Part shown: positions 1,156 through 34,691 of the stretch, piece after piece | How the letters are laid out: every line of letters begins with the position of its first letter | Numbering within the stretch: position 1 is the first letter of the stretch | Sequence record: NC_054651.1 | Reading direction: 5' to 3' (one strand) | Length of the DNA: 46,667 nucleotides | Origin: Escherichia phage C1 | The notes under the pieces: model-generated | Seen by the model: only the letters and a program-made list of their open reading frames with translations | What the model was told of the DNA's origin: nothing | Database searches by the model: none | Translations under genes and position numbers: made by a program

Positions 1156-3186
1156 TTAGTTTTGGAGTTCAACCGTTGATTTATGTACAATACCCCGGGT
1201 CGCATCCCCACCTTGTAAGATGAACTTCATAAGTGTGGCGGATGGAACCTCTAATAATCCAAGTCCCTGTGAAAGACCTCCGCCACCAACTGCATAAGCT
1301 TCACATTTATGTAAGTTAAACCCAGTAGGCGCAGCAACCCATACCACTCCATTAGCATCAAGGGCTGATACTGTCCATGTGCTTTGTTCGTAAAATCCAT
1401 TACCTACGTAGTACCATCCAGGACCAGGCTTAAGGGCATCAGCCAGGCCATTGTTACGACAGTAGTCAATAACTCTTTTGTTTGCGCGGCTTACTTTAAG
1501 ATAGTTAGTACATGCTACATTCCCACCGTTGAAAAACAATCTATTGCCTGACAATGCTGAATACAGATATTTATCTACAGACTCAAGATTGTTAAATGAA
1601 TTGGCAGATGCTGACATATTCATGCCATTTACAGTAATGTCATTACCTGTATTATTGAATGAAAAAATTGCTCTTGTTGCTGCTGGTATTGTAACTTCAG
1701 TTTGAGAATATTTGTTGGCAATTGTGTATCTTGCTGTATGTGCCCCGCTTGAGTTCATGTATGTAATGCTATAAACAAATCCAAAATTTGCAGTTATGTT
1801 TTTGTTGTTTTGGTCAGCAAGGAACAGTAACCCATTATAGAATTCAACCCCTAGTTCAAATGTGAGGTACTCACAATTGCTTCCCAGCTGTACTGCAATT
1901 GGTGTTTCGTTTGCACTATCCCAGATAGCTCCCTCGGTTGAGTTAAGAACTTCTACATAACCACGGAAAAAACCATACTGACATTTGTCAAGATAAATTG
2001 GGAATGGACATCCTCCTATCTCAACTCGCAGATCAAATGAAGTAGTTGGACCTGTAACGCCAACAGGAACTGTGTGTTCTGGTGTTGGTGATACAGGGTC
2101 AAAATAGATCCCTTTATGACAACTCAAAACACGTATAGTACCGACCATCCCCCAACATCCGTACCCATATACACCGAACTCTCCGCCCCACACGCTTACA
2201 TCGACTTTTGCTTTGATCGCATCATTCATATGAAGGCAAATTGACAGGTCACCTTTAACAGCAGACATCCATGCAACATTTGACCACTCAAGAGAAAAAC
2301 CCTGGAATACAACACCATTTACAAACCCATTTGTTGATGCTGTATCAGATGCTTTTTTTACTTTCACAATGCAGATATCGCCAATATTTGTTGATGATGT
2401 TACTGATGGTTTATCTTTAATTATCATTGTCCCATGAAAATGATCAGACTGCGGGCCTGCAATAAAGCAACTATTAATATCCAGCATCAATGTGTCGAGA
2501 GATGAGAATCTGTATTTCTTCAACGTTGGGCATCTTACTGAGCACTTTAAACTACGTGCTACTGTGTCTGCTTTTTGCATTGCGGCCCAGTCAATTGACT
2601 GAGATAAACTTGTTGCAAGCGGATACACCAATTGCGCATCAGTTAGAGTGGTGTATTTTTCTGATAATAGATGAAGAGTTCCATCTCCTATTGCTCCAAA
2701 CTGCTCTGGTGTTACATAATATAATGCCTGAGATAAATTACCAGATTGCTGAACGCCTACTCTAGTTGGGTCTACTAATGGTTCTCCGGGTGAATTTAAT
2801 TCACCCCTTAAAACTGCATCACCGACACTAACCCATGCTCCTAATTTAACACCGCCAGTACTATCTGGAGTTGAACCAGCAGGCACTATTTTAGGTAATT
2901 CACCATCCCATCGGTAATATTCTCCAGTAGCTTCATAACGCAGAGTCTGATTGGGAAGCGTCAGTGCCGCACCATCTTCGAAGCTATCCATTGTGATGTA
3001 GCCATAATTACGGATAGCCTCTTCTGCTGTGTACTGAAATCCAGCAATTGTCCAGCGGCGTACGCCGAAGCGATCAGTATAGTAATGCGCATCAGATGTC
3101 ACTACCTCATCAATCTTCCCGGCGTTAAACTTGAGGTCGCGCGGGTCTTCTGACGGAATTGGTTTATTAGTTGGTGTGGTAGCCAT
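1156..3186 (-). CDS. tailspike / tail fiber with pectate-lyase-like beta-helix domain (putative depolymerase)
   Basis: 676 aa, last gene of tail module; motif YYVTPEQFGAIGDG resembles the N-terminal signature of pectate-lyase superfamily tailspikes. Confidence 0.65.
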   Translation of the reverse strand: MATTPTNKPIPSEDPRDLKFNAGKIDEVVTSDAHYYTDRFGVRRWTIAGFQYTAEEAIRNYGYITMDSFEDGAALTLPNQTLRYEATGEYYRWDGELPKIVPAGSTPDSTGGVKLGAWVSVGDAVLRGELNSPGEPLVDPTRVGVQQSGNLSQALYYVTPEQFGAIGDGTLHLLSEKYTTLTDAQLVYPLATSLSQSIDWAAMQKADTVARSLKCSVRCPTLKKYRFSSLDTLMLDINSCFIAGPQSDHFHGTMIIKDKPSVTSSTNIGDICIVKVKKASDTASTNGFVNGVVFQGFSLEWSNVAWMSAVKGDLSICLHMNDAIKAKVDVSVWGGEFGVYGYGCWGMVGTIRVLSCHKGIYFDPVSPTPEHTVPVGVTGPTTSFDLRVEIGGCPFPIYLDKCQYGFFRGYVEVLNSTEGAIWDSANETPIAVQLGSNCEYLTFELGVEFYNGLLFLADQNNKNITANFGFVYSITYMNSSGAHTARYTIANKYSQTEVTIPAATRAIFSFNNTGNDITVNGMNMSASANSFNNLESVDKYLYSALSGNRLFFNGGNVACTNYLKVSRANKRVIDYCRNNGLADALKPGPGWYYVGNGFYEQSTWTVSALDANGVVWVAAPTGFNLHKCEAYAVGGGGLSQGLGLLEVPSATLMKFILQGGDATRGIVHKSTVELQN

Positions 3187-3225
3187 TATAATAAATGCTC
3201 CTTTGTGAATTTGATGTATATTGTA

Positions 3226-7026
<3,801 letters not shown>

Positions 7027-7027
<1 letters not shown>

Positions 7028-9939
7028 TATTCTGTTGCTCTCCTGTTGGTATTGTAATTTCTAGAAATGGCCTGCCCTATCGGGCCATTTTCCGAAATGT
7101 CACTAACAATAGTCTCAATTGTCACGCTGCCGTCACCATTATCTCTTGCGGTTGATGAGGTTGTTGCCCCGCTGCTGGTATTGATGACGTTATTATAAAT
7201 AACGATACCACTACCACCTCCAGTCAGGTCTTTGTTGCTGATAACGCGACCACTATCCCCCGGGATCATGTACTGATGACCGTTTGATGCCTGGAATATC
7301 TCAGGGAGGTTATTCTCGCCCACCCTGTACATCGAGCCTTCCTGCGCTGGTCCGCCGTTTTTCAGCGCGCCAGCAATGGATAGTGTTTTTGCAAGACCAA
7401 CTGTTGCTGACATCCCGGCCATTGCTGGTGCTGAGTTTGCCCCAGCCGTTGCCAGTGAGGTCATGGCTGCTGCTGGAGCCATTGCTGCTGATATTGCCGC
7501 TGCCTGAGCTATTGTCGCTGCAGAAGCCGCGCTCATTCCTGCAGCACCCATGATAGCTGATTTGGCCCAGTCTATACCCATTTGCACAAACGCATTGATA
7601 ACACTGGACAGGATGTTTGAGCCAATTGATCGCAGAGCATCTGATACAGACATTGAGCCAGTAAGGATGCCAGTAAGCGCATTTCCAGCGGTCTGCCCGA
7701 AAGCATCAAACGCCGCCGCAGCCGCTTGCGTTGCTGCGCTTTGCTGACTCCACTCCTGCCACATTGCTTCAAGTCGCTGTTGGCGGTATTGCGCTTCAAT
7801 TGCTGCGCGAGTCTGCTCAATCTCCGTGATTTTTTGTGGATATGCTGCGGCGTATGCTTCAAGGTCAGCCATATCCTTCTGATAGGATGTTTCTACAGCA
7901 AACATTGGTGAGGTTTGTGATTTTAGTGCGCTGTATCCTTTTACGGCATCTATTCTTTTCTTTTCCGCCGCAACCTGTTCCTTCAGTGCATTCTTCTGGT
8001 CCCAAATCTTCGCCGCGTACTCACCAGCCAGTTTTATTTGTTCCTGAGTTGCCGCCTTGCCAAGAGATTGCTGAGCGTTGAGAATGGCTTGCTCGCGTGA
8101 TAGTTCTTTTGTGGATTCTGCCTGACCAGCAAGTAGAGCCTCCTGCCGCAGTTTATTTAATTTCTGCTGGATGGTTTCCTGTTGATTTAGTTCAGTCTTA
8201 AGCTGGTTATTTGCATTGCGCTCATCCCTTGCCGCTTGTGCATTTTTCTCCTGCTGACGATATGTCTCAAGTCTGACATTGTAATATTCACGAAACGCAG
8301 CGGTATTCTGCTTTAATCCCTGAGCTTCAGCATCACGCCACGCCTGAGCTTTTAGCTTTTCATCGCCAGTTTGTTTCTCAATAAATAATGTCTGGCGAGC
8401 GGTTTGTAGCGCCTTATCCTGACTTGATGTTAAGGAGTCTGTCATCTCCTTGAGAGCTTTCAGGCGCATTGTTGCGTCAGTTGTTGTGGTAGCAATTTCC
8501 AGCAAGCGAGCTGCATATTCTCTTGCCTTTTGCGCGCCAGATGACTGTCCCTCGCCTACCTTTTGCAGAGTAACGATTAACTCATTAAGTTTTTCATTGC
8601 TCGGATTTTTGGCGATTTCAGAGAGTTGCTTGGCAAATTCAAAAGCCTGCTGGTCGGTCAAATCAAAGCGACTTGCCAGAGCGCCTACTGTGGCAATCAT
8701 GTTATTCATCGTGGATTGCCCGGCAAGTCCGGCTGATGCTGCCTGCTTCATCGCTTCACCGAAATCATTGGTGGTGATATTCAGCATGGACAGGTAATCA
8801 TTAAACGATTTAACGCTGACATTAGCTCCTGACAATGAAGCAAAAAGACGATCGCCAAAGGTTACGAACTCACTGGATGCTTTTGATACTTCCTTAGATA
8901 CCTTTGAGAGCGCCGCTGAAAGTTCAAGTTGCGCTTGCTGGCGCATCAGTGTTGCAACGGTTGTGTTTGCCCTTGCTAATGCCGCAAACTTATCTGAGTA
9001 TGCTGCCACGCCATTGCTTGAAACGCTGATAACCTGATCCATTGCAGAAATGGCATCTTTCATGGCATCAATGGCATTTTTGCCGTTACTCAGCGAGGCC
9101 ATCAGTGAACCAGCAATAACTGTCGCAATTGTCAATACTGCGCCAGCTACCGGACTGAATACAGATGCAAGTTGTGAACCTTGCTGACTGAATGCAACAA
9201 GCGCAGACTGACCACTTTGAACCTGAACAATAAAGTCCTGAACCTGATAGCCACCCTGTTGCAGCGCGTTCCTGAAACCGTTTGTGGATTTGCCAGCCGA
9301 CTCTGTACCGTTTTTCATGTCGTACAGGCGACCAGTCAGCTCAGCAATCTTGGCCTTTTGTGCGTCAGTTGCGCCATCTCCAGCTCTGAGTTGTGCTGCA
9401 AGAATGGCTGCGCTTCGTGCGCCGTTTTCCATTTGCTCTTCAAGAATTGCAACCTGATTTCCGAGACTTTCAATTAATCTTTCTGTGCCAGATATGCTTG
9501 CGCCAGCGCCGCCAGTAGATGTACCAAGCTCACGAATAGCAGTCGTAACAGCATTAATTGAGGTTTCCAGTCTGCCAGTAGAAACAGCGGCTTGTTGCTG
9601 TTGCTGCTGCATCATGGCGAGTTGCTGATTTAGAGCGTCGATAACCTGATTCGCTGACTCAGCAGACTGCGATGTCGATTTGACAGCACTTGCCGCGCCA
9701 TCACTGGAGGCCGCCATCTTGCTAAGTGTGGCATCAATGCTTTTAACCACGGAGACAAGGGAAGAGAATGCCTTTCCGGTTGAATCAGCCTGACCATCAA
9801 GTTTATTTAAATTCTTCGTGGAGCCACTTACAGCTGAGTCAAATTTTGATAACTCTGATTCCGCTGAGCTTGCTCCTGCTTTAAGCCCGGATACATCCAT
9901 CCCGACTTCATAGACAATTCCGCCGACTTCTTCAGCCAT
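7027..9939 (-). CDS. tail tape measure protein
   Basis: 970 aa, Ala/Gln/Ser-rich with long predicted coiled-coil stretches and poly-Q run, hydrophobic C-terminal region; located between chaperone-like gene and minor tail genes. Confidence 0.85.
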
Positions 9940-10655
9940 TATGTATTCCTCGCTTTTTTCGCTTTGCGTTCAGTCAGTGCCTTCATGCGCTCGCGGTCTG
10001 CTTTAGCCTGATCGTACTCTGCTGCGCGTTCTTCTTTCGTTAACCCTTTCGGTTCTGGATATTTATTCTTAATCATCATCTGAAACTCTGTCATGGACAG
10101 GTTTTCTGCCTCATCACGCGTCATGTCGAAGTGCGTGCGTGCTGAGATGATGTATTGCGACGCATGAAACTCGTTTGTTGTTTTCTTGCCCTGCTCTTCC
10201 AGACGTTCAGGAACCTTGAGCGGCGACTTGCCAATGATGCCATGCTGCATCAGATTGCGTGCAATAATAATAATATCACTCACTGGCATGATGCCTGGAA
10301 CATACCGCACGCCGCGCGGTGTTAGTTTCCATCCACCAATCAGCACAGAAATATCATCTTCACAGCATGACTGCATGACGATATAGGCCGCGCTCAGCAC
10401 ATGGCGACCATACACGGGCTTACTGATGGTCTTCATGACCTGCATCTGCGCGCCAAATGGCAGGTATTCTACGTGCTGTAATGGAGCAATATAATCAATG
10501 CCATTGAGTCTTGCGTACACCTCGACGATTTCTTTTGGTGTGCCGATTTCATTCATGGCGCGGAATGATGGCTTGAAGAAAAAACTCCTGTCGGAAAGCG
10601 AGATGCGCATCTCTCCGATTTCTGTTAGTGGCGTGCGATTGCTCATGTTTTGCAT
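9939..10655 (-). CDS. putative tail assembly chaperone
   Basis: 238 aa ORF whose stop overlaps TMP start; position only. Confidence 0.4.
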   Translation of the reverse strand: MQNMSNRTPLTEIGEMRISLSDRSFFFKPSFRAMNEIGTPKEIVEVYARLNGIDYIAPLQHVEYLPFGAQMQVMKTISKPVYGRHVLSAAYIVMQSCCEDDISVLIGGWKLTPRGVRYVPGIMPVSDIIIIARNLMQHGIIGKSPLKVPERLEEQGKKTTNEFHASQYIISARTHFDMTRDEAENLSMTEFQMMIKNKYPEPKGLTKEERAAEYDQAKADRERMKALTERKAKKARNT

Positions 10656-10667
10656 CCTGAATTTGAC

Positions 10668-10725
10668 TGATGTTGATTATATCATCTCAGTGGTGTTGAC
10701 ACCTGTGAGGTGGTGATGTAGATTC
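10668..10725. promoter_or_regulatory. divergent promoter module A: minus-strand extended -10 (TGATATAAT) and plus-strand TTGACA-17-TAGATT
   Basis: Plus strand GATTATATCA...GGTGTTGACA-N17-TAGATT; the reverse complement of the first part is TGATATAAT; near-copy of the module at 12774..12821. Confidence 0.5.
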
Positions 10726-10763
10726 AAGTCATCGAAACGAGTGATGAATAAATGAGGTGAGTT

Positions 10764-11057
10764 ATGAAAATTAAAATGTTGATTGCATCAGCGCTATTGG
10801 CTTCTTCCTTTGCTGTCAGTGCGACATCTGAGGTTTGCAAAAACATTGGAGAAATCGCCATGAACACTGCTGATGTTCGCGATAACGGTATCAGCAAGAA
10901 TCTTGCCGAGGTGGTAGTTAAAGGTTCCGCAAAAAACAACGAATCAGCAGAAATAATCGGCCTTGCTATCGTAGAAATGGTTTATGCACGCAAGGATATG
11001 ACCAAAGAGCAGTTGCGTGATGTGGCTATTGCTTTGTGCGAAAAGAATGGAATGTAA
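10764..11057 (+). CDS. secreted small protein (signal peptide), unknown function
   Basis: 97 aa; N-terminus MKIKMLIASALLASSFAVSA is a typical Sec signal peptide; first gene of plus-strand moron cassette. Confidence 0.5.
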   Translation: MKIKMLIASALLASSFAVSATSEVCKNIGEIAMNTADVRDNGISKNLAEVVVKGSAKNNESAEIIGLAIVEMVYARKDMTKEQLRDVAIALCEKNGM

Positions 11058-11089
11058 TATCAGCAAGTTGCTAAAAATTGAGGTGAGTT

Positions 11090-11284
11090 ATGGACGTTGT
11101 TATTTTGCTGTTTTTTGTTGGTTTGGTGATATTTGCGTACCTTCTGCCATCTTTTGTGGCGCTGCAGCGCAAGCACGTAAACACGACTGCAATCTGCGTA
11201 CTGAATATTCTTATTGGATGGAGTTTTATTGGATGGGTAGCAGCGCTTGTTTGGGCATTAGTTAAGAGCGACGATAAAAAATGA
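11090..11284 (+). CDS. superinfection immunity (Imm-like) small membrane protein
   Basis: 64 aa, two hydrophobic helices; block YLLPSFVALQRKHVNTTAICVLNILIGWSFIGWVAALVWAL matches the remembered pattern of the superinfection-immunity family (LPS.IA..R.H.N...N...GW..IGW..AL.WA). Confidence 0.55.
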   Translation: MDVVILLFFVGLVIFAYLLPSFVALQRKHVNTTAICVLNILIGWSFIGWVAALVWALVKSDDKK

Positions 11285-11424
11285 ACGAACAAACAAAAGC
11301 TGACCTGATTTTCTACACTGATCTGTATGTTGATGCAGGTTACGACTACGAAGAAGCGGAGCGAATGGCGAAAGATTTGCTTCGTGTGATTGGTGTGATT
11401 TTTGATGAGGATAAGGTGATATGA
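11281..11424 (+). CDS. hypothetical small protein
   Basis: 47 aa ORF (below track threshold) with ATG overlapping preceding stop; translationally coupled position. Confidence 0.3.
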   Translation: MNEQTKADLIFYTDLYVDAGYDYEEAERMAKDLLRVIGVIFDEDKVI

Positions 11425-11795
11425 AAAATTATGAAGATATGAGTGATTTTGAGATTAACTCAGCAGTGCATAATGCTCTAATGCAGGAGCCGTACAAAAT
11501 TGAATTTCTTGGCAATGACAGAATAAGATGGGTGAGAGGTTCAACTGACGTAACGACAGGAAAAGTAGGGTATGGCAAGCGCTCTCTTAAAGACTATTGC
11601 AATAATCCAGCTGATGCTGAACCTATTATTATTGAAAACAGAATTGGCACCATTCCAGCACCAGATAATGGATTGTGGAAAGCTGCGCATAGAAAGGTTG
11701 GCAATGATGATACGCCATACCATTTTACTCAAGATAAAAACCCGCTCCGCGCCGCTATGATTGTTTTCCTGAAAATGAATGAGGATAAATTATGA
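11421..11795 (+). CDS. hypothetical protein (NinX/DUF2591-like N-terminus)
   Basis: 124 aa; N-terminal MSDFEINSAVHNALMQ resembles DUF2591; start overlaps upstream stop. Confidence 0.45.
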   Translation: MKNYEDMSDFEINSAVHNALMQEPYKIEFLGNDRIRWVRGSTDVTTGKVGYGKRSLKDYCNNPADAEPIIIENRIGTIPAPDNGLWKAAHRKVGNDDTPYHFTQDKNPLRAAMIVFLKMNEDKL

Positions 11796-11992
11796 TACAG
11801 TGGATTAAGTGTGGTGAGCGGATGCCTGAAGAAGGCCAAATGGTTCTCACGTCGTTTCGTGGCGTCGTTAGAACTGCGGCATGTAAAGTTGTCGACAACA
11901 TTGGCAGTAAGATTTTTGTTAGTGAATTAGACCGCTGTCACGGCATTCCAGCTACCCATTGGGTCAATCCACCGCAGCCGCCACAAGAATAA
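11792..11992 (+). CDS. hypothetical protein (DUF551-like)
   Basis: 66 aa; N-terminal WIKCGERMPEEGQMVL resembles the DUF551 signature. Confidence 0.4.
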   Translation: MIQWIKCGERMPEEGQMVLTSFRGVVRTAACKVVDNIGSKIFVSELDRCHGIPATHWVNPPQPPQE

Positions 11993-11994
11993 AA

Positions 11995-12022
11995 CAAAGC
12001 CCCTTTCGGGGCTTTTTTGTTT
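11995..12022. terminator. bidirectional rho-independent terminator
   Basis: AAAGCCCC-tttc-GGGGCTTT hairpin flanked by A-run and T-run; lies between convergent gene ends 11992 (+) and 12024 (-). Confidence 0.7.
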
Positions 12023-12023
12023 A

Positions 12024-12740
12024 TCAGGACACAGTGCAAGCCGTGCTGATGATAATTTCAGGGTCAGTGGACGAGTCAGTCACCGTGACGGTATATACAC
12101 CAGCGGTTGGGCTTGCCAGTGATGCGCCGGACTCACTGCCGACAACCACACCATCTTTGCGCCACACGTAGGTGTAAGGAGAGACGCCACCTTCAACAGC
12201 AACGGTTAACGGGCTGCCAGCCGTTCCAGTTGATTGCAGGTCGGTAGTGAATGCCAGAGGTTCAAGGCTTTCTACGGTAACGCTGTCAGAATCGTAAACC
12301 TTAAACTCAAGGCTGCCAGTAACGATGTCGTTTGTGCCACCTTCGTAGCTGATGCTGGTAATGTTGCAGTACGCGGTCACGATAGTCGCACCGGTCACCT
12401 CGCGCACCCACAAGGAAGGCTGGCGACGCGCTTTCAGTTCAGTGGTGTAAATCTCAACCAGACGATGGAAACCAAACTCATCGCTCGGGTCATTTTTGCG
12501 TATCTCAACCTCTGCGCTGATGGTCATATCAGAGCTGGTAACGAGAGTGGAAACAAAACCGCCAGTGGTGTCAGCTTCAGACGTGGTAGTCTGCGGCGAG
12601 TAGTCCACGCCTTTACTGGTGGTTGAGCCTAAATATTTCCAGTCTTCTGCTGCCGGAACTGCGTCACCGCATCCCTCAGCAAGGAACAGTCGAGTCATGC
12701 GACCGACCAGAACGCCTTTATCATTTGCACAAATAGCCAT
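12024..12740 (-). CDS. major tail protein (lambda V-like, C-terminal Ig-like domain)
   Basis: 238 aa; C-terminal 80 aa has Big_2-like Ig pattern (TVAVEGGVSPYTYVWRKDG...GVYTVTVTD); strong SD (GGAGA) before ATG. Confidence 0.65.
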   Translation of the reverse strand: MAICANDKGVLVGRMTRLFLAEGCGDAVPAAEDWKYLGSTTSKGVDYSPQTTTSEADTTGGFVSTLVTSSDMTISAEVEIRKNDPSDEFGFHRLVEIYTTELKARRQPSLWVREVTGATIVTAYCNITSISYEGGTNDIVTGSLEFKVYDSDSVTVESLEPLAFTTDLQSTGTAGSPLTVAVEGGVSPYTYVWRKDGVVVGSESGASLASPTAGVYTVTVTDSSTDPEIIISTACTVS

Positions 12741-12773
12741 TTCGATCTCCGAATTGTGTTAGCTGCTAACGTG

Positions 12774-12821
12774 GTGATTATATCACAGGTGTTGACAGTG
12801 ATTATTTTGTGGTGTAGATTG
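12774..12821. promoter_or_regulatory. divergent promoter module B: minus-strand extended -10 (TGTGATATAAT) for major tail gene and plus-strand TTGACA-17-TAGATT
   Basis: Plus strand TGATTATATCACAGGTGTTGACA-N17-TAGATT; near-copy of module A. Confidence 0.5.
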
Positions 12822-13262
12822 TATTTCAGATAGTTTTCGTGAGCGACTTTGCGGACTTTTTAGAAACTGACCACAAAGATAAATGCAAACGATGATGTTG
12901 TTCTGATGGCGGCGTAATAGCCTGTAAGTCAGCAAGGTCTTCCGATTCCTTGTAAACAAATTCGGCGCAGTGGCCCGCTGTGATTAATAATGGGCACACA
13001 ACAGGTAAGAGCATTGAGTCGATAATCGTGAAGAGTAGGCGCGCTTGGTTAGCCAGTGATCTTTCCGTTGTGGTAATGCCATCTTGATTATTTGGATAGG
13101 TTTGCATCCATTGTTATGCCAGTTTCAGTTAATCGCGAAACGCCACAACACTTAACATTCAGCATTAATTGAAAACAATTTTCCGTAATTATGTATAGGG
13201 GTATGCAGGGATTACGGAGCTGGATGTTAAGAAAGCACGCTGGCAATGCTTAAACCAGTAAT

Positions 13263-13291
13263 AAAGCCGCTTCATGCGGCTTTATTTATTT
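13263..13291. terminator. rho-independent terminator
   Basis: AAAGCCGC-ttcat-GCGGCTTT hairpin followed by TTTATTTATTT on plus strand; also immediately 3' of minus-strand gene 13286..13660. Confidence 0.6.
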
Positions 13292-13660
13292 CACAACCCG
13301 CAAAAGCAACTCATGTACGGGCCGCTTCTCTTCCGTCAGCATCGGCCTACCGAGCGGAGCCTGCAACTGGATGTAGTTAACGCACGAATCAATCGGATGC
13401 GTCTTGATGTATTCGATAATTTCATTGGCTTTAGCATCAACATCAGCAACGTTGTACTGGCCTTGCTTGCCAACAACATACAGAGAGAAATAGAAGTCAC
13501 CGCCGAGTCCATTCATCACCTGCGTGCCGCCGTTGGATTGCAGGACAATAAATTGCTCACTGCCATCTCCAGTGTCATTCCAGAACTGCAATTGCGAAGT
13601 CCAGCCATCATACAATCCAGCATCCTGAAGATATGTATCAACCAGTTCAAGCATGTTCAC
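13286..13660 (-). CDS. head-tail joining protein (tail terminator/neck position)
   Basis: 124 aa; last of four compact, overlapping small genes between capsid and major tail genes. Confidence 0.4.
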   Translation of the reverse strand: MNMLELVDTYLQDAGLYDGWTSQLQFWNDTGDGSEQFIVLQSNGGTQVMNGLGGDFYFSLYVVGKQGQYNVADVDAKANEIIEYIKTHPIDSCVNYIQLQAPLGRPMLTEEKRPVHELLLRVVK

Positions 13661-14055
13661 AGTTTCATCTCCTTTTTAATCACGCTATCAACAAGGTCTT
13701 TTGTGCGTTGCGCTGCTTTGGTCAGAAATTGCGGTTCACCGCCCGGAGACCAGTACGTGCCATTGCCGTTGCTGCGTGGTTTGCCTGTAAGTTTGCCACT
13801 GGCATTGTGGACGTACAGCGCATATTTTGCAGAGTAGCCAACTTTGCCAGTGATCCGCGTTCCGTTAACTTCCACGGTATCAAACTGGCTGTTAATCAGC
13901 GTCGATGTATCAATTGGCGTCAACGTGGCTGATTCAGTGCGGATGATGTATGTCGCCGACTTCAGGGCGCGCACAGCTTTCGTGGCAATTATCTCATCCA
14001 CAATCTGCGATGTTCTTTCTACGGCCTGCCGGATGCCTCTTAATTTCGCTGGCAT
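13657..14055 (-). CDS. head-tail joining protein (tail completion position)
   Basis: 132 aa; start overlaps upstream stop; synteny. Confidence 0.4.
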   Translation of the reverse strand: MPAKLRGIRQAVERTSQIVDEIIATKAVRALKSATYIIRTESATLTPIDTSTLINSQFDTVEVNGTRITGKVGYSAKYALYVHNASGKLTGKPRSNGNGTYWSPGGEPQFLTKAAQRTKDLVDSVIKKEMKL

Positions 14056-14402
14056 TATGTCACCAGCGCAAAGTCAGGCGGCTCAGCACGATTGAACGTA
14101 TTGCCGTAATTAATCACATTCAGAATCTGGTTTGCACCAGCCGCCAGCGGGTCAGCTTCTGTCGCCGTGCCAATCATGATGTAATCACCTACCTTGGCGT
14201 CAGTGTATTCCGTCCAGAAGGTATTTTTCTGCACAATCTCATTACCTTTCGCATCAGTCGATACATCATCATTAAAGCCATAATCGCACATGATGCTCAC
14301 TGGCGCGCCAAAAGTCGGCTTGCCGTACTTGTCAGTGCCGCTTTTGTGCCAGATTGTGCATGGTTGCGTGTAGGAAAACCGAGCCAGTGAAGTCATTTGC
14401 AT
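14055..14402 (-). CDS. head-tail joining protein (head closure position)
   Basis: 115 aa; synteny. Confidence 0.4.
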   Translation of the reverse strand: MQMTSLARFSYTQPCTIWHKSGTDKYGKPTFGAPVSIMCDYGFNDDVSTDAKGNEIVQKNTFWTEYTDAKVGDYIMIGTATEADPLAAGANQILNVINYGNTFNRAEPPDFALVT

Positions 14403-14821
14403 TTACTCCCACGCACAACCGCAAACCACGGCTTGCCGCCGCCGTCAGGGTCTTCCACCAAATCGCCAGTGCATCCTGCTGTATCCAGTAGTTTCATCTG
14501 ATTGTACAGCGCCACCCACGGCTTACTGCCATACGAGAATGATTGTGATGCACCAGATGGTGCGCTCTGGCTGGTAACGTAGCGCCCGGCGGTATTTGCG
14601 CTAATCAGAATTGAAGCCCACAGCATGATCGCATTTTGTCGGCATTCATCATTTGGGTAGCTCAGCTCAAGGCATTCACTGATTGACGCCACAAGGCACA
14701 GAATGCCAGACGCATCCGTTGTGGTGATAGTCATCCCGCGCGACGCCATCTGACTGACCAGCTCTTCAGGTGTTGGTGCTGTCATTTCTCTTTGACTCCC
14801 GTACTTTCCACCACATCTCAA
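14393..14821 (-). CDS. head-tail connector/adaptor protein (putative)
   Basis: ORF-track ORF; likely true start at MTAPTPEE (about 14785); synteny. Confidence 0.4.
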   Translation of the reverse strand: MRCGGKYGSQREMTAPTPEELVSQMASRGMTITTTDASGILCLVASISECLELSYPNDECRQNAIMLWASILISANTAGRYVTSQSAPSGASQSFSYGSKPWVALYNQMKLLDTAGCTGDLVEDPDGGGKPWFAVVRGSKCK

Positions 14822-15523: not shown

Positions 15524-15525
15524 TA

Positions 15526-15642
15526 TTTCTTACCGCGCGATGGTGAGCGGGTGGAACCGTTTGGCTTCACTGCGCCAGCTTTGCCGCCAGCTTTGGTATT
15601 GCCAGTGGCGCGTGAGCGAGACGGCGAATTGGTTGAACCCAT
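15526..15642 (-). CDS. small basic Ser/Gly-rich protein
   Basis: 39 aa ORF below track threshold; strong SD (AGGAG) before ATG; stop overlaps next ATG. Confidence 0.3.
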
Positions 15643-15689
15643 GTTTAAATCTCCTGTTGTTTGATTAGCATGATTTTAGCATATTCCTG

Positions 15690-15718
15690 TTGACGTAGAT
15701 TAGTGTGGCGTTTATAGT
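15690..15718 (+). promoter_or_regulatory. sigma70-type promoter TTGACG-17-TATAGT for ParB/MTase/clamp cassette
   Basis: Hexamers with 17 bp spacer; contains TGACGTAGATT and a second TGACGTAGAAAC copy just downstream. Confidence 0.55.
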
Positions 15719-15741
15719 TAGTGACGTAGAAACAACAATAA

Positions 15742-15933
15742 ATGTTAGAGGTGATGGAAATGGAAGGTAAAACAGAAGTTGTGGTTGTTGATGTTTTTTA
15801 TCAAGCATCAGACGAAGGCATTCCAGCTCACTGGTGCTGCCAGTTTATTCGCGATGGATGGACTGGTTATGAATATTTTGATAACTCAGAAGATGCATAT
15901 AACTATGCTTACTCACATGGATTTCAAGGATAA
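15742..15933 (+). CDS. hypothetical small acidic protein
   Basis: 63 aa ORF, first gene after promoter; likely start at internal ATG near 15757. Confidence 0.4.
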   Translation: MLEVMEMEGKTEVVVVDVFYQASDEGIPAHWCCQFIRDGWTGYEYFDNSEDAYNYAYSHGFQG

Positions 15934-15936
15934 ACA

Positions 15937-16746
15937 ATGAAAACACTAAGCAAAATCTATTCAGACAAAGAAACGCGCAACGGTATCGCTGTCAATAAAA
16001 CCTATCTCGTGCCAGTTGAGCAAATCTATCTTGAGCCTGGATACAACATCCGCGAAGCCGATGAACAGCATGTGGAATATTTCGCGCAGTGCTGGGAATC
16101 AGGTCAGCCACTGCCAGCATTAACAGTTATTCCTGACGAGAAGGGAATCCGCATTCTTGATGGTCAACATCGCTACCTCGGCGCATTGCGTGCCATTGAG
16201 CGTGGCGCACCAATCGTTCGTATTGAGTGTAAGGATTTCACTGGCGATGAGGCGGACAAAATTGCCTTCATGGTGTCATCCAGTCAGGGGAAGCAACTTG
16301 ACCCGTTTGAGCGCGCAAAGGCTTACACACGACTGAAGGGTTTTGGCTGGACGAATGAAGAAATAGCCAAGAAGGTAGGTCGTTCAGTATCTGACGTGCA
16401 GATGCATCTGTCACTGGGTGATGTGCCTGCGGAAGTAAAAGCGCGAATCAGTGCCGGGCAAATCAGCTATGCAAATGCCGTAGCAGTAACTCGCGAGCAT
16501 GGCGATGATGCGGTAAAAGTTATCGACGAGGCAGTCGAAGAAGCTAAAGCACAAGGCAAAGACAAGGTCACAGCCAAAGTGCTGAAGTCGAAAAAGATTA
16601 AGCCAATAGACCGCCTGATTGAGTTATTGAAGCCAGCAGACCATGTGATTCTTCCTGCTGGTCATGTAGTGGCAGAGGATGAGGAGTTTATCCAGATTCC
16701 TGTTGCTGATATTCACGAGGTTATGGCAATTCTGGAGAAGATGTGA
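15937..16746 (+). CDS. ParB-like nuclease domain protein
   Basis: 269 aa; ParB/Srx N-terminal domain pattern including ILDGQHRYLGALRA; stop overlaps downstream start. Confidence 0.7.
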   Translation: MKTLSKIYSDKETRNGIAVNKTYLVPVEQIYLEPGYNIREADEQHVEYFAQCWESGQPLPALTVIPDEKGIRILDGQHRYLGALRAIERGAPIVRIECKDFTGDEADKIAFMVSSSQGKQLDPFERAKAYTRLKGFGWTNEEIAKKVGRSVSDVQMHLSLGDVPAEVKARISAGQISYANAVAVTREHGDDAVKVIDEAVEEAKAQGKDKVTAKVLKSKKIKPIDRLIELLKPADHVILPAGHVVAEDEEFIQIPVADIHEVMAILEKM

Positions 16747-17626
16747 TGATTATAAATGAAGACGTGAAATTAATTCATGGCGATTGCCTGGAAGTCATGA
16801 AGTCTATTCCTTACAGTAGCGTTGATTTGATTTTGTGCGATTTGCCGTATGGGACGACACGCAACAAGTGGGATAGCGTTATAGAACTGCAGTCGATGTG
16901 GGCCGAGTACAAGCGCATTTCCCGTGGCGCTATCGTGCTCACAGCGCAGGCGCCATTCGACAAGATTCTTGGAGCATCAAATATCGGCATGTTTCGATAT
17001 GAGTGGATCTGGCAAAAAACGAAAGCAACAGGTCACTTGAACGCAAAGATTCAGCCAATGAAAAACCATGAAAACGTCCTTGTTTTTACAAGTCACTACC
17101 AGTGTACAACCCACAGGGACTGGTAAGAAAAGCAGTTCCAACCATAAGAAAGGGTGGAAACAACGGTACGAACTACGGCAAATCAGACAAGGACGCGATT
17201 CAGGAATTTGAGAACTACCCGCGCTCAATCATTGCGATACCAAGCGAAGGCAGAACCATTCACCCAACCCAGAAGCCAGTCGCGCTGATGGAGTACCTTG
17301 TCCGCACCTACACCAACGAAGGCGACGTGGTTATGGATAACTGCATGGGTAGTGGCACGACCGGAGTCGCCTGCGTGAACACTGGTCGTCGTTTCATCGG
17401 AATAGAAAAAGATGATGAGTATTTTGAAATAGCAAAAAAAAAGGATTTTAGGATGAACGCCGAACAATTCATCGAAAAACAACTCCGCGCCAAGCTGCCT
17501 GACATCGACCAGATGGCAGTTGATGCGGCGATTCAGTATTACAAGCGCAATCAGAGCGCAAAGAAGGGTGGCATTTTTGAAGAATGCCTGAAGGTTGCAA
17601 GGCAACACATGATTAAGGTGAAGTGA
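16743..17626 (+). pseudogene. N6-adenine DNA methyltransferase (Dam-like, beta class), split by a frameshift near 17072..17126
   Basis: ORF 16743..17126 carries LILCDLPYG (motif IV-like) and ends ...[19 protein letters not shown]; overlapping ORF in another frame (17102..17626) carries HPTQKP and [12 protein letters not shown] (motif I, AdoMet binding). Confidence 0.7.
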
Positions 17627-18162
17627 TGAAACTAAAAATAAGCAAACTATTACTTGAATCAGCATTAATCTTTCAGGCTCGCAACGATGTGCGTTACTAC
17701 CTGAATGGAATCTGCTTTATGACTAATGGTCGCATTGCGTCAACTGACGGTCATCGCGCATTCATTGGTGGAAGCCATGACAATAAGCTGACAGAAAATG
17801 TGATCATCAAGATTGGCAAATCTCCAACAAAACGCTATGAGTACGCCATTATTGATACCAAGTCGAAAATTGCGACGTATCATGATGAAGCTGGCGCGAT
17901 GGTTGGTGCTGGTATCTGCGAAGAGATTGATGGCCGATTTCCTGATATTGATCGCGTAATACCAAATGAAACGAAAGCAGCAGAGGAAATCGGCTTTAAT
18001 GCTGGTTATCTCGTGGATATCGAGAAAGTGGCGAAGCTGTTTAATCCTAAATTCTGTGGCGTTAAGTTTGAATTGAATGGGAATACAAATGCCGCCGCTT
18101 GCTGCCTTAATGCGCCATCTGGCGAGACTGCGAAGATTGTTGTTATGCCTATGCGACTATAG
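17623..18162 (+). CDS. truncated DnaN-like sliding-clamp protein (beta-clamp homolog fragment)
   Basis: 179 aa; blocks [37 protein letters not shown] and C-terminal VVMPMRL match remembered E. coli DnaN blocks; about half the length of DnaN. Confidence 0.7.
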
Positions 18163-33161: not shown

Positions 33162-33236
33162 AGTGATATCTCCGGTAAGCCTGATGTAGATATACTATGC
33201 GCTCGGTGTAGATTGGTCAAGTGTGGTGATGCAGAT

Positions 33237-34691
33237 TTATCGCCTGCGACGGAATAGCATCCCGCTACCGCGCTGGACGATGTGGTCATTGAGCGCATAG
33301 CGAACGGCATCCCAGTAGTGGTTAAATGCATCAACAATATCAGTGAGCACATTCCCTGTCAGCTTATCGACCTTGTAGCTGTACATTGCTGCTTCATTCT
33401 GCATTTCCTTGCATCGTTCGTGAATGACGATGCTGTCACAGCCACGCAGCCACGTAACGCCATCTTCAACGCTTCCCGGCCATTTTGTGCATGCGTGAAT
33501 ATCGAATCCAGAGCGCTTGATGTGGCTGATAGTTTCTGGTCGAGCGCAGTCCGCATACCATCGTGCGCGCTTAGCCATCGGGAATGATTGTTCCATCGCG
33601 GCTGGCGTGTCAGTAATCTCAAGCCCAACCTTGCCGTACTCGCGATTAATATAAATGTTACGCCTGTCGCCGGGTAAATCTTCGATGTAAACCTCAACCA
33701 TTGCGGTAGGGTCAGTGGAGAAACCGAAGTCCATCCCGAAGTATGGGCCATGCCATTCAGGCTTGACCTCAAAGTTATCAATGCGCCATTTGCCACCGAA
33801 GATTTGCTCGTCGCTACGTTTGTTAAATTTCCCTTCCCAAATCCACATGTAGCGATCGAAGTCAACGCGCTTCATTTTATCTTTTGAGCGGATTAATTCT
33901 TCAGTCATCCATGGATTATCGGTCCAGTTACACTCAATGATGAGTATTTCATCATCCTCGTAAATTCCGTTTACCATCTTGTTATGCCACGGGGCAACCC
34001 ATCGCGTCCATGTGGCATCGGTTTCTTTGTTGGGGTTGAATGTCACCCATATTTCAGCGCCTGGATTGCGAACGGTAGGCTCAAGAATATCCCACGATGC
34101 CTGACTGACGTTTTCAGCCTCCTCAATCCATGCCTTCGTGATACCAGCAAAACCCTTAACGCCAGTCACGTTTCGATAAAGGCCACGGAAACGGAACTTT
34201 GATTTAGTCTTCTTGTGGGTAATCTTGCCATCAATGCAACGATACTCTTTTGATTCTCCTTTGCGATCAATCTCATCCACCAGTTCCTGATAGCTGGAGT
34301 CTTCAATTGATTGTTGAATCTCGCGGAAGCACCCGATACGTTCGGATTTGAATCTTGCCGACTCAGTAAGGATTGTCGATACCGTGCGAGTCTTTGCCGA
34401 CCCACGTCCGCCGTATACAACCTTCCACGGCTTGGGGTAAAGCAGGCGCTCCAGCTTTGCTGGAATAAGGTGGTCAGCATGAGTGGTTGAATTGGTCACA
34501 TCATCAACGCCAGTGGCTGTCATTCTTAACCGCTTAATGACGTTCTTCTGCATATCGCAGATGCCAAAAATGGCGGACTCTGCAACATCTGTCATTGCAT
34601 CATCAATCTGCGCCTCCAATTTTTCGATTGCCAGTGCGGAGAGGCGTTTACGAGCCATATCGAGAGCAGCCCCATGAAATGACCCAACCAA
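33237..34691 (-). CDS. terminase large subunit
   Basis: 484 aa; Walker A-like VVYGGRGSAKT near N-terminus, acidic nuclease-type C-terminal half; preceded by small-subunit-like gene. Confidence 0.85.
   Translation of the reverse strand: MVGSFHGAALDMARKRLSALAIEKLEAQIDDAMTDVAESAIFGICDMQKNVIKRLRMTATGVDDVTNSTTHADHLIPAKLERLLYPKPWKVVYGGRGSAKTRTVSTILTESARFKSERIGCFREIQQSIEDSSYQELVDEIDRKGESKEYRCIDGKITHKKTKSKFRFRGLYRNVTGVKGFAGITKAWIEEAENVSQASWDILEPTVRNPGAEIWVTFNPNKETDATWTRWVAPWHNKMVNGIYEDDEILIIECNWTDNPWMTEELIRSKDKMKRVDFDRYMWIWEGKFNKRSDEQIFGGKWRIDNFEVKPEWHGPYFGMDFGFSTDPTAMVEVYIEDLPGDRRNIYINREYGKVGLEITDTPAAMEQSFPMAKRARWYADCARPETISHIKRSGFDIHACTKWPGSVEDGVTWLRGCDSIVIHERCKEMQNEAAMYSYKVDKLTGNVLTDIVDAFNHYWDAVRYALNDHIVQRGSGMLFRRRR

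Follow-up and report, generated by a model that had tools for sequence, protein, structure and literature searches.

The 46,667-bp genome of Escherichia phage C1 (NC_054651.1, a complete record that is referred to here as the window) carries a minus-strand tail operon that is broken by two plus-strand inserts, each with a promoter module at its left edge whose rightward promoter faces the insert (modules A and B; Table 1). These modules are probably conserved divergent sigma-70 promoter pairs that bound plus-strand accessory cassettes within the minus-strand head–tail operon, with the cassette behind module B being a stable-RNA cassette that opens with a short RNA resembling the tag-encoding half of transfer-messenger RNA (tmRNA). 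The same genome is on record, reverse-complemented and rotated, as ON239132.1 (Escherichia phage S192, genus Deseoctovirus), and 33 related genomes gathered via the major tail protein served for comparison (34 genomes with the window).

Two probable divergent promoter modules

Three elements, GATTATATCA, GGTGTTGACA and TAGATT, are found at both sites, the first two separated by 7 nt in module A and by 2 nt in module B. Read on the plus strand, each module supplies a perfect TTGACA, a 17-bp spacer and TAGATT, matching the sigma-70 consensus at 10 of 12 positions; read on the minus strand, each supplies TGATATAAT, a perfect extended −10 (TGnTATAAT) with no good −35, which takes the longer form TGTGATATAAT in module B. 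The leftward extended −10s lie 14–30 nt upstream of the DUF6246 and tape-measure genes (A) and of the major tail gene (B). Across both strands of the 46,667 bp, TTGACA-N15-19-TAGATT has two matches where 0.07 would be expected (none of 100 shuffles contained two), and there is no further TTGACA-N16-18-TANNNT beyond modules A and B. Exact matches to TGATTATATCA are likewise confined to the two modules, which also supply two of the four genome-wide sites of TGNTATAAT (1.5 expected). The co-occurrence of these elements at two sites is real and non-random, and the predicted elements support an anatomy of back-to-back sigma-70 promoters in both modules. The first-pass annotation, which had described a shared two-site architecture with an extended −10 for a tail gene on one strand and TTGACA-17-TAGATT on the other, was correct on all of these counts, as it was in placing a moron-type cassette in front of module A: the payload there includes Imm_superinfect, NinX and DUF551 genes and is followed by a predicted bidirectional terminator.

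The pattern of conservation is informative. Both modules are kept in nearly all of the 33 relatives. In module A the spacer varies at no fewer than six positions across the 34 genomes while TTGACA and TAGATT are invariant, as a working promoter should show; directly ahead of TAGATT, five further bases read TGATG throughout, with TGACG once. Both leftward extended −10s are invariant in the 33 relatives, including two (L037 and L038) in which the rightward B promoter has been replaced and GATTATATCACAG kept. Only one related annotation was encountered among the relatives, a predicted promoter in ASO78B.

Module B is constant among the relatives up to TAGATT and then switches immediately among at least four unrelated payload types, and in the window the homology of the payload with unrelated phages starts at 12829-12833, next to the predicted start at ~12828. 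Two relatives (L013 and L033) carry a third promoter variant, GATTATATCA followed by TTGACAGGGAGTGCAGGACTGATGTAGATT with TTGACA-18-TAGATT, before a gene for a 93-residue membrane-anchored protein with a hydrophobic C-terminus; in L013 this extra unit (2860-3290 in window orientation) adjoins a complete module A in tandem, each of the two junctions carrying a copy of the duplicated CTGATGTTGATTATATCA. The same design is present at both positions in the distant Klebsiella phage RCIP0103, as TGGTATAAT with TTGACA-18-TAGATT and TGATATAAT with TTGACA-17-TAGATT, and the arrangement therefore appears to be old and conserved. To judge from these boundaries, the promoter modules act as the junction at which cassettes are exchanged.

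Each unit would begin with the extended −10 promoter that points left, followed by the near-consensus promoter that points right, the payload and a terminator hairpin. The rightward TTGACA-17-TAGATT would give strong, early expression of the payload by RNA polymerase alone, the payload being small genes of the superinfection-immunity type in A and stable RNAs in B, where the window phage has non-coding modules only. Because the terminator of a cassette would cut the structural operon, the leftward TGnTATAAT promoter is expected to restart the next tail genes. The two promoters of a module are 6–11 bp apart, so that the footprints of polymerase on them must overlap, and competition between the overlapping promoters is likely. 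We infer the start sites and the firing of promoters and terminators from these predicted elements.

Origin of the modules and a recurrent 11-mer

The first-pass annotation also held that the two modules point to modular acquisition or duplication of promoter-bearing cassettes. Acquisition is well founded in that payloads are exchanged right at the modules, and the L013 unit is a true duplication, but duplication of A to give B could not be demonstrated. A recent event, in which the ~50-bp module was copied with or ahead of its cassette so that A and B are homologous by recent descent, would fit with module B being the best non-self match of module A in the genome (local score 35), with a few further identities (GGTG ahead of the −35 and three bases, CA plus A, flanking the leftward −10) and with the extra gene of L013 being flanked by a real copy of the left half of the module. 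However, a chance match in a coding region scores 31, and when the three consensus elements of B were held fixed and the remainder shuffled, 161 of 3000 trials reached the observed score (p about 0.05), making any excess similarity beyond the promoter elements marginal; the only other identity outside the consensus, TGnTG ahead of the rightward −10, belongs to a motif (TGrTG) that recurs genome-wide and is not special to A and B, and without it the spacers agree no better than by chance; both modules, moreover, are present and already different in RCIP0103. As evidence, overall likeness between the two ~55-bp modules carries far less weight than the co-occurrence of their elements. Recent copying is therefore unlikely, and the resemblance is better described as a promoter vocabulary shared by this group of phages, possibly with an ancient duplication behind it. 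A further alternative is that TGAYGTAGATT, the 11-mer that ends in the rightward −10, is mainly an operator of a phage DNA-binding protein and that the modules are regulated switches, with binding over the rightward −10 silencing the cassette promoter and freeing the overlapping leftward tail promoter at a late stage of infection. We hold this as a minority possibility that is compatible with, and not exclusive of, the divergent-promoter reading. The genome has 17 copies of the motif at no more than one mismatch, 16 of them within the intergenic 10.3 per cent of the sequence, and 11 of the 17 are placed like a plain −10 element, 30–140 nt upstream of a same-strand gene. Two inverted pairs (24891/24918 and 27661/27688) share an identical 27-bp start-to-start spacing, and three tandem copies 22–23 bp apart (33182-33237, plus strand) separate the terminase large-subunit gene from a small gene; both of these genes run on the other strand, and no gene on the strand of the copies lies within 5 kb. 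This triple array looks more like a protein-binding array than a promoter. Such pairs, and an array with nothing to transcribe, make an additional operator role possible, and the TGAYG flank is as conserved as the hexamers in relatives and a winged-helix protein is encoded in the genome. Against this, no regulator is linked to the motif, and TTGACGTAGATT holds both a −35-like and a −10-like hexamer, so that tandem copies 17 bp apart, such as 38341/38324, which together form a −35/−10 pair, may simply make a promoter. The motif may thus be a −10 element, an operator or both.

A stable-RNA cassette behind module B

Insert B (12821 to ~13290) contains no annotated gene, and the earlier statement that module B drives a region without an open reading frame (ORF) is literally true; it misses that this is a cassette of transfer RNAs (tRNAs) and stable RNAs, opening with a tmRNA-like tag RNA. 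In 20 of the 33 relatives, among them ASO78B with tRNA-Ser and tRNA-Arg, insert B holds one or two genes for tRNA-Met, Ile, Arg or Ser on the promoter strand, and ARAGORN finds no tRNA or tmRNA in the window genome; the window thus has the tRNA-less version of a tRNA cassette. Its insert is a mosaic of RNA modules, as it is among close relatives, and the 3′ two-thirds (12997-13292) fold far better than shuffles (z = −5.9). The module that directly precedes the tRNA genes in relatives contains a stem, AACATTCAGC with GCTGGATGTT, that shows a compensatory change in ASO78B. A long hairpin, CACAACAGGTAAGAGC...CCGTTGTGG, is found again to either side of the tag module in other phages and in lambdoid prophages, its tip carrying a variable insert, and may be a punctuation element for RNA processing.

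The tag module itself (~166 nt) gives weak matches to the Rfam tmRNA models, centered on AUAAAU GCA AAC GAU GAU GUU GUU CUG AUG GCG GCG UAA. These matches are sub-threshold (E = 7e-5 to 0.01), in the window as in unrelated phages, with best scores for RF04321 of 27.3 bits in the window and 33.1 bits in phage IME11, and for RF00023 of 15.9, each against a gathering score of 47. The frame has an in-frame TAG eight codons upstream of GCA and no ATG, GTG or TTG in between. Among 17 distinct versions of the tag ORF, all open at GCA without a start codon and all run 10 codons to a stop; they include ANDDVVLMAA, ANDNTFLAVA, ANDNVFLAVA, ANEEMYLAVA, ANDEQFLAVA, ANDDLMMVAA, ANDDLMLMAA and ANDDLMLAAA. 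The tag frame shows 177 synonymous codon differences as compared to 17 and 83 for the other two frames, all four GCN codons are used for the last alanine, and the stop is TAA or TGA. By these counts the tag frame is under purifying selection as a peptide, which argues that the tag is decoded.

The structure around the frame is maintained as well. In the helix around the stop codon one pair is split between GC and AU (12/11), and the H-type pseudoknot that follows shows compensatory changes at three of five pairs in stem 1 and at all four in stem 2, with 97–99 per cent of cells paired in the stems as opposed to 34–51 per cent in slid controls. The loop of the terminal hairpin, UGUGAUUAAUAA, is kept while its stem changes. 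Candidates for pseudoknot 1 (PK1), AGUUUU/GAAACU and CUUUG/CAAAG, are paired in 78–96 per cent of cells, show hardly any covariation and are different in Felix O1-like members. When a covariance model of the phage modules was run, it found one copy in the window genome (135 bits) and, on a 701-nt stretch with Escherichia coli ssrA, the mRNA-like domain only (16 bits, E = 0.002, the calibration being short and E-values accordingly rough), aligning resume codon on resume codon and stop on stop. tmRNA loci from IMG/VR were picked by a 16-mer shared with this model and are not independent evidence.

A blastn search places the tag module in 768 phage records of several families, 295 of them nearly full length. 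Carriers include N4-like, Vi1-like (Ackermannviridae) and Felix O1-like phages, Klebsiella siphoviruses and Erwinia phages, along with lambdoid prophages, where it lies between Q and S, and P1-like plasmids, where it lies between dmt and tRNA-Asn. Among 5426 E. coli genomes 795 match it, prophages and P1-like plasmids being the carriers, and so do ~550 E. coli plasmid records. In P1 (L175, AF234172; 901-1083, tag ANDDLMMVAA) it is unannotated and sits in the leader of the C1-controlled ban operon, between a 'dicF-like region', the only neighboring feature marked in that 535-feature annotation, and tRNA-Asn/tRNA-Thr. The module is almost never annotated elsewhere, save for small ORFs called there by some automatic annotations. 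Felix O1-like phages have their own TTGACA-17-TATAGT promoter exactly at its 5′ end, and in these phages the module lies within the tRNA array. A bacterial origin was considered and rejected, as a scan of GTDB found the module in only four species representatives.

It is conceivable, and we offer it as a tentative proposal, that at least five enterobacterial phage lineages carry a free-standing tmRNA-derived tag RNA, devoid of the tRNA-like domain, that is co-expressed with tRNAs from strong promoters and acts on ribosome rescue, the lineages including S192-like siphoviruses, N4-like, Vi1-like and Felix O1-like phages, P1 and lambdoid prophages. With similar reserve, host trans-translation may be what the RNA takes part in or acts upon, by serving as an alternative template for the tag or by competing with the host tmRNA.

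The missing tRNA-like domain

Several points weigh against these interpretations. Promoters, start sites and terminators are all predictions, the hairpin that would end cassette B is not called by a simple terminator scan, and a constitutive-looking extended −10 before late tail genes is odd in a lytic phage and hints at regulation that has escaped notice. As for the tag RNA, no tRNA-like domain was found in the window genome with ARAGORN or Rfam, all tmRNA matches fall under Rfam gathering scores, and pairwise similarity between the tag module and E. coli ssrA is not significant alone. The module folds no more stably than its shuffles (z = 0.03), a measure that tells nothing about an RNA with many pseudoknots and much single-stranded coding sequence. 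To our knowledge, there is no mechanism by which a tag template is translated without a tRNA-like domain.

The search for such a domain was extended in several directions. With Rfam, the interval 10000-14500 yields no hit from the tRNA clan even at E ≤ 1, and across the whole genome nothing reaches a gathering score. An acceptor strand upstream of the module is excluded, since the module begins at the predicted start and the Felix O1-like promoter is placed at the same point. Regular-expression and pairing searches for acceptor strands over 20 loci gave nothing consistent. A T-arm with CGGCUCCA in Ackermannviridae was rejected as partner, because it is part of another tRNA-like module, ~125 nt long, whose distance varies and which has C3–G70. 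This conserved RNA lies downstream of the tag module (L004, about 1688-1797; also L165 and L168) and is not called by ARAGORN; it has an acceptor stem GCCGUU/AACGGC, a long internal helix AUCUGACU/AGUCAGAU, a T-arm GGGUUCGACUCCC, an encoded UCCA end and C3–G70 in place of G3–U70. A different small RNA, at 1957-2024 of IME11 (L003), is a tRNA-like minihelix of 68 nt that has an acceptor-type stem of 9 bp (UUCCGGUGU/ACGCCGGAA), T-arm CUGGUUCGAGUCCAG and an encoded CCA, and is likewise not called by ARAGORN; several such fragments occur in phage tRNA regions. A 'tmRNA' that ARAGORN reports in phage swi2 (L017 3376-3750, minus strand; tag AKAVRLRKCSFRCGECAG), borrows the 3′ end of a tRNA-Met and omits the real tag module, and is probably a false call. 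A P2-like closing helix, pairing 5′ GUUUUCGU with ACGGAG near 13212, was set aside because that segment folds locally and the partner is not conserved in ASO78B.

Other identities for the module were considered and did not fit. It corresponds to the middle of ssrA and not to the 3′ end that an attP-type fragment would have, and the window genome has no integrase; blastn finds no similarity of the module to host ssrA in the 5426 E. coli genomes. A conventional small ORF from the AUG in AAAUGC is 5 to 9 codons long and is not conserved. In the open-access literature, to which the survey was confined, six of the tag peptides appear in no paper, and phage tmRNAs are described only as full-length or tRNA-like-domain-only forms and not as a tag-only RNA. 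The module is thus not a member of the tmRNA family as defined, and is best described as a derivative of its mRNA-like half.

Two further readings were weighed. The tag RNA might be a functionless relic, an ssrA fragment captured once and carried passively in phage tRNA regions, which are mosaics of odd fragments; the absence of a tRNA-like domain and the sub-threshold level of every Rfam match would fit. This is quite improbable for an element that is spread over 768 phage records of several unrelated families, that retains a 10-codon frame with its AN(D/E) start, Ala/Val end and stop through ~50 per cent nucleotide divergence, that shows an excess of synonymous change within that frame and compensatory changes upholding its pseudoknot, and that has acquired independent promoters at its 5′ end in two phage families. 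The conservation of the frame could also be the shadow of a protein gene on the minus strand (ORF 12826-13107, 93 residues), since an open minus-strand frame covers the tag region in many family members and it is there that some automatic annotations call their small ORFs. That ORF, however, has no Pfam match and is unannotated in the window genome record, stops break the minus frame in several members, and the region is a mosaic among close relatives; it is also in register with the tag frame, such that synonymous GCN changes in the tag become Arg, Ser, Cys or Gly replacements on the other strand. A minus-strand ORF cannot account for the synonymous pattern, and we consider an antisense gene highly implausible.

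Layout of the region

Coordinates of the features discussed above are collected in Table 1. A third opposite-strand block (plus strand, about 15790-18160 or, more widely, about 15524-18160), with a DNA methylase, an annotated 'DNA polymerase' fragment and others, sits between head genes and head–tail connector genes and follows the same layout logic with a weaker promoter; the 267-bp intergenic region upstream of it contains TGACGTAGATT and a second half-site 30 bp downstream.

Table 1. Genes, predicted promoter elements and RNA modules of the window.
Feature	Position	Strand	Remarks
Tape-measure gene	7027-9939	−	
DUF6246 gene	9939-10655	−	
GATTATATCA, module A	10675-10684		
Leftward promoter, module A, TGATATAAT	10676-10684	−	Predicted start ~10669; for DUF6246 and tape-measure genes
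GGTGTTGACA, module A	10692-10701		
Rightward promoter, module A, TTGACA-17-TAGATT	10696-10724	+	−10 inside TGATGTAGATT
TAGATT, module A	10719-10724		
Cassette A payload	10764-11992	+	Five small genes
Gene for 97-residue signal-peptide-like protein		+	One of the five small genes
Imm_superinfect gene	11090-11284	+	
47-residue ORF		+	One of the five small genes
NinX gene	11421-11795	+	
DUF551 gene	11792-11992	+	
Predicted bidirectional intrinsic terminator	11996-12015	Both called	Between cassette A and stop of major tail gene
Major tail protein gene	12024-12740	−	
GATTATATCA, module B	12776-12785		
Leftward promoter, module B, TGTGATATAAT	12777-12787	−	TGATATAAT at 12777-12785; predicted start ~12770; for major tail protein gene
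GGTGTTGACA, module B	12788-12797		
Rightward promoter, module B, TTGACA-17-TAGATT	12792-12820	+	−10 inside TGGTGTAGATT; predicted start ~12828
TAGATT, module B	12815-12820		
tmRNA-like tag module, ~166 nt	12832-12997	+	RNA expected to start at AGUUUUCG; begins at predicted start
Tag module, possible PK1	12832-12878	+	
Tag module, resume codon GCA	12885	+	
Tag module, tag ORF	12885-12917	+	ANDDVVLMAA; TAA at 12915-12917
Tag module, helix around stop	12903-12906 with 12929-12932	+	
Tag module, pseudoknot stem 1	12933-12937 with 12948-12952	+	
Tag module, pseudoknot stem 2	12942-12945 with 12962-12965	+	
Tag module, terminal hairpin	12973-12976 with 12992-12995	+	Conserved loop
Long hairpin module	12997-13073	+	~95% identical to lambda DNA (L006 1501-1576) just downstream of tR'
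Structured module	13141-13258	+	Directly before tRNA genes in relatives; no tRNA after it in window
Terminator-like hairpin, AAAGCCGC-TTCAT-GCGGCTTT then ATTTATTT	13263-13290		Predicted from fold; would end cassette B, abuts stop of tail terminator gene
Tail terminator gene	13286-13660	−	
TGAYGTAGATT copies	3212, 10668, 10714, 12810, 15691, 24918, 27661, 33182, 33204, 33227, 42025, 44704		
TGAYGTAGATT copies	24891, 27688, 35272, 38324, 38341	−	

Comparison with known systems

The promoter pairs illustrate clearly, if unsurprisingly, the wiring of accessory cassettes into the structural operon of a phage, with the promoter doubling as the exchange junction. The tag RNA, present in ~1.5 per cent of sequenced phages including P1 and lambdoid prophages, keeps a selected tmRNA-style degradation tag yet lacks the domain thought to be indispensable for using it. 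If functional, it would pose a question, open to testing, on ribosome rescue in infected cells and on the reason that a tag RNA travels with phage tRNAs, and would add a family that is in neither Rfam nor the tmRNA database, the search tools of the latter depending on a tRNA-like domain. A tag template that works without a covalently attached tRNA-like domain would, if the proposal is true, be a new viral way to reprogram or exploit trans-translation.

Morons, as described by Hendrix and colleagues, are reportedly autonomous promoter–gene–terminator units between structural genes of tailed phages. Like them, the cassettes here have their own predicted promoter and terminator, the latter a candidate hairpin in cassette B, lie between conserved tail genes and vary in content among close relatives, and cassette A has a superinfection-type payload. 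Unlike morons, they are on the opposite strand, each with a second, outward extended −10 that would restart the interrupted operon; the promoter is itself the apparent recombination junction, and one cassette carries RNA genes in place of a protein gene. The species 1 and 2 RNAs of T4 are companion stable RNAs of a phage tRNA cluster, and the tag RNA, which is likened to them by description only, would similarly be a small structured RNA co-transcribed with tRNAs from a strong host-type promoter, whereas the window phage has lost the tRNAs and kept only the companion modules.

With tmRNA (RF00023; permuted forms RF01849, RF01850 and RF04321) the tag RNA has in common the lack of a start codon, a GCA resume codon preceded by an A/U-rich AUAAAU, a tag of 10 residues of the form AND/ANE...Ala/Val-Ala (ANDENYALAA in E. 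coli) and a stop inside a helix (helix 5) followed by an H-type pseudoknot, and covariance matches between the two are reciprocal and in register. It differs in having no acceptor stem, T-arm or G3–U70, in its length of ~166 nt instead of ~360, in having one hairpin with a conserved loop in place of pseudoknots 3 and 4, and in being phage-borne within tRNA cassettes and below every Rfam gathering score. In the open-access literature surveyed, full phage tmRNAs are listed only in mycobacteriophages and Bacillus phage G, besides tRNA-like-domain-only ('CDS-less') forms in mycobacteriophage DS6A, which some plastids also have (PMC4131195, PMC11915505). The DS6A RNA is a parallel, as a phage-borne, truncated tmRNA derivative that keeps one functional half; it keeps the tRNA-like domain without the tag, whereas the RNA described here keeps the tag without the tRNA-like domain.

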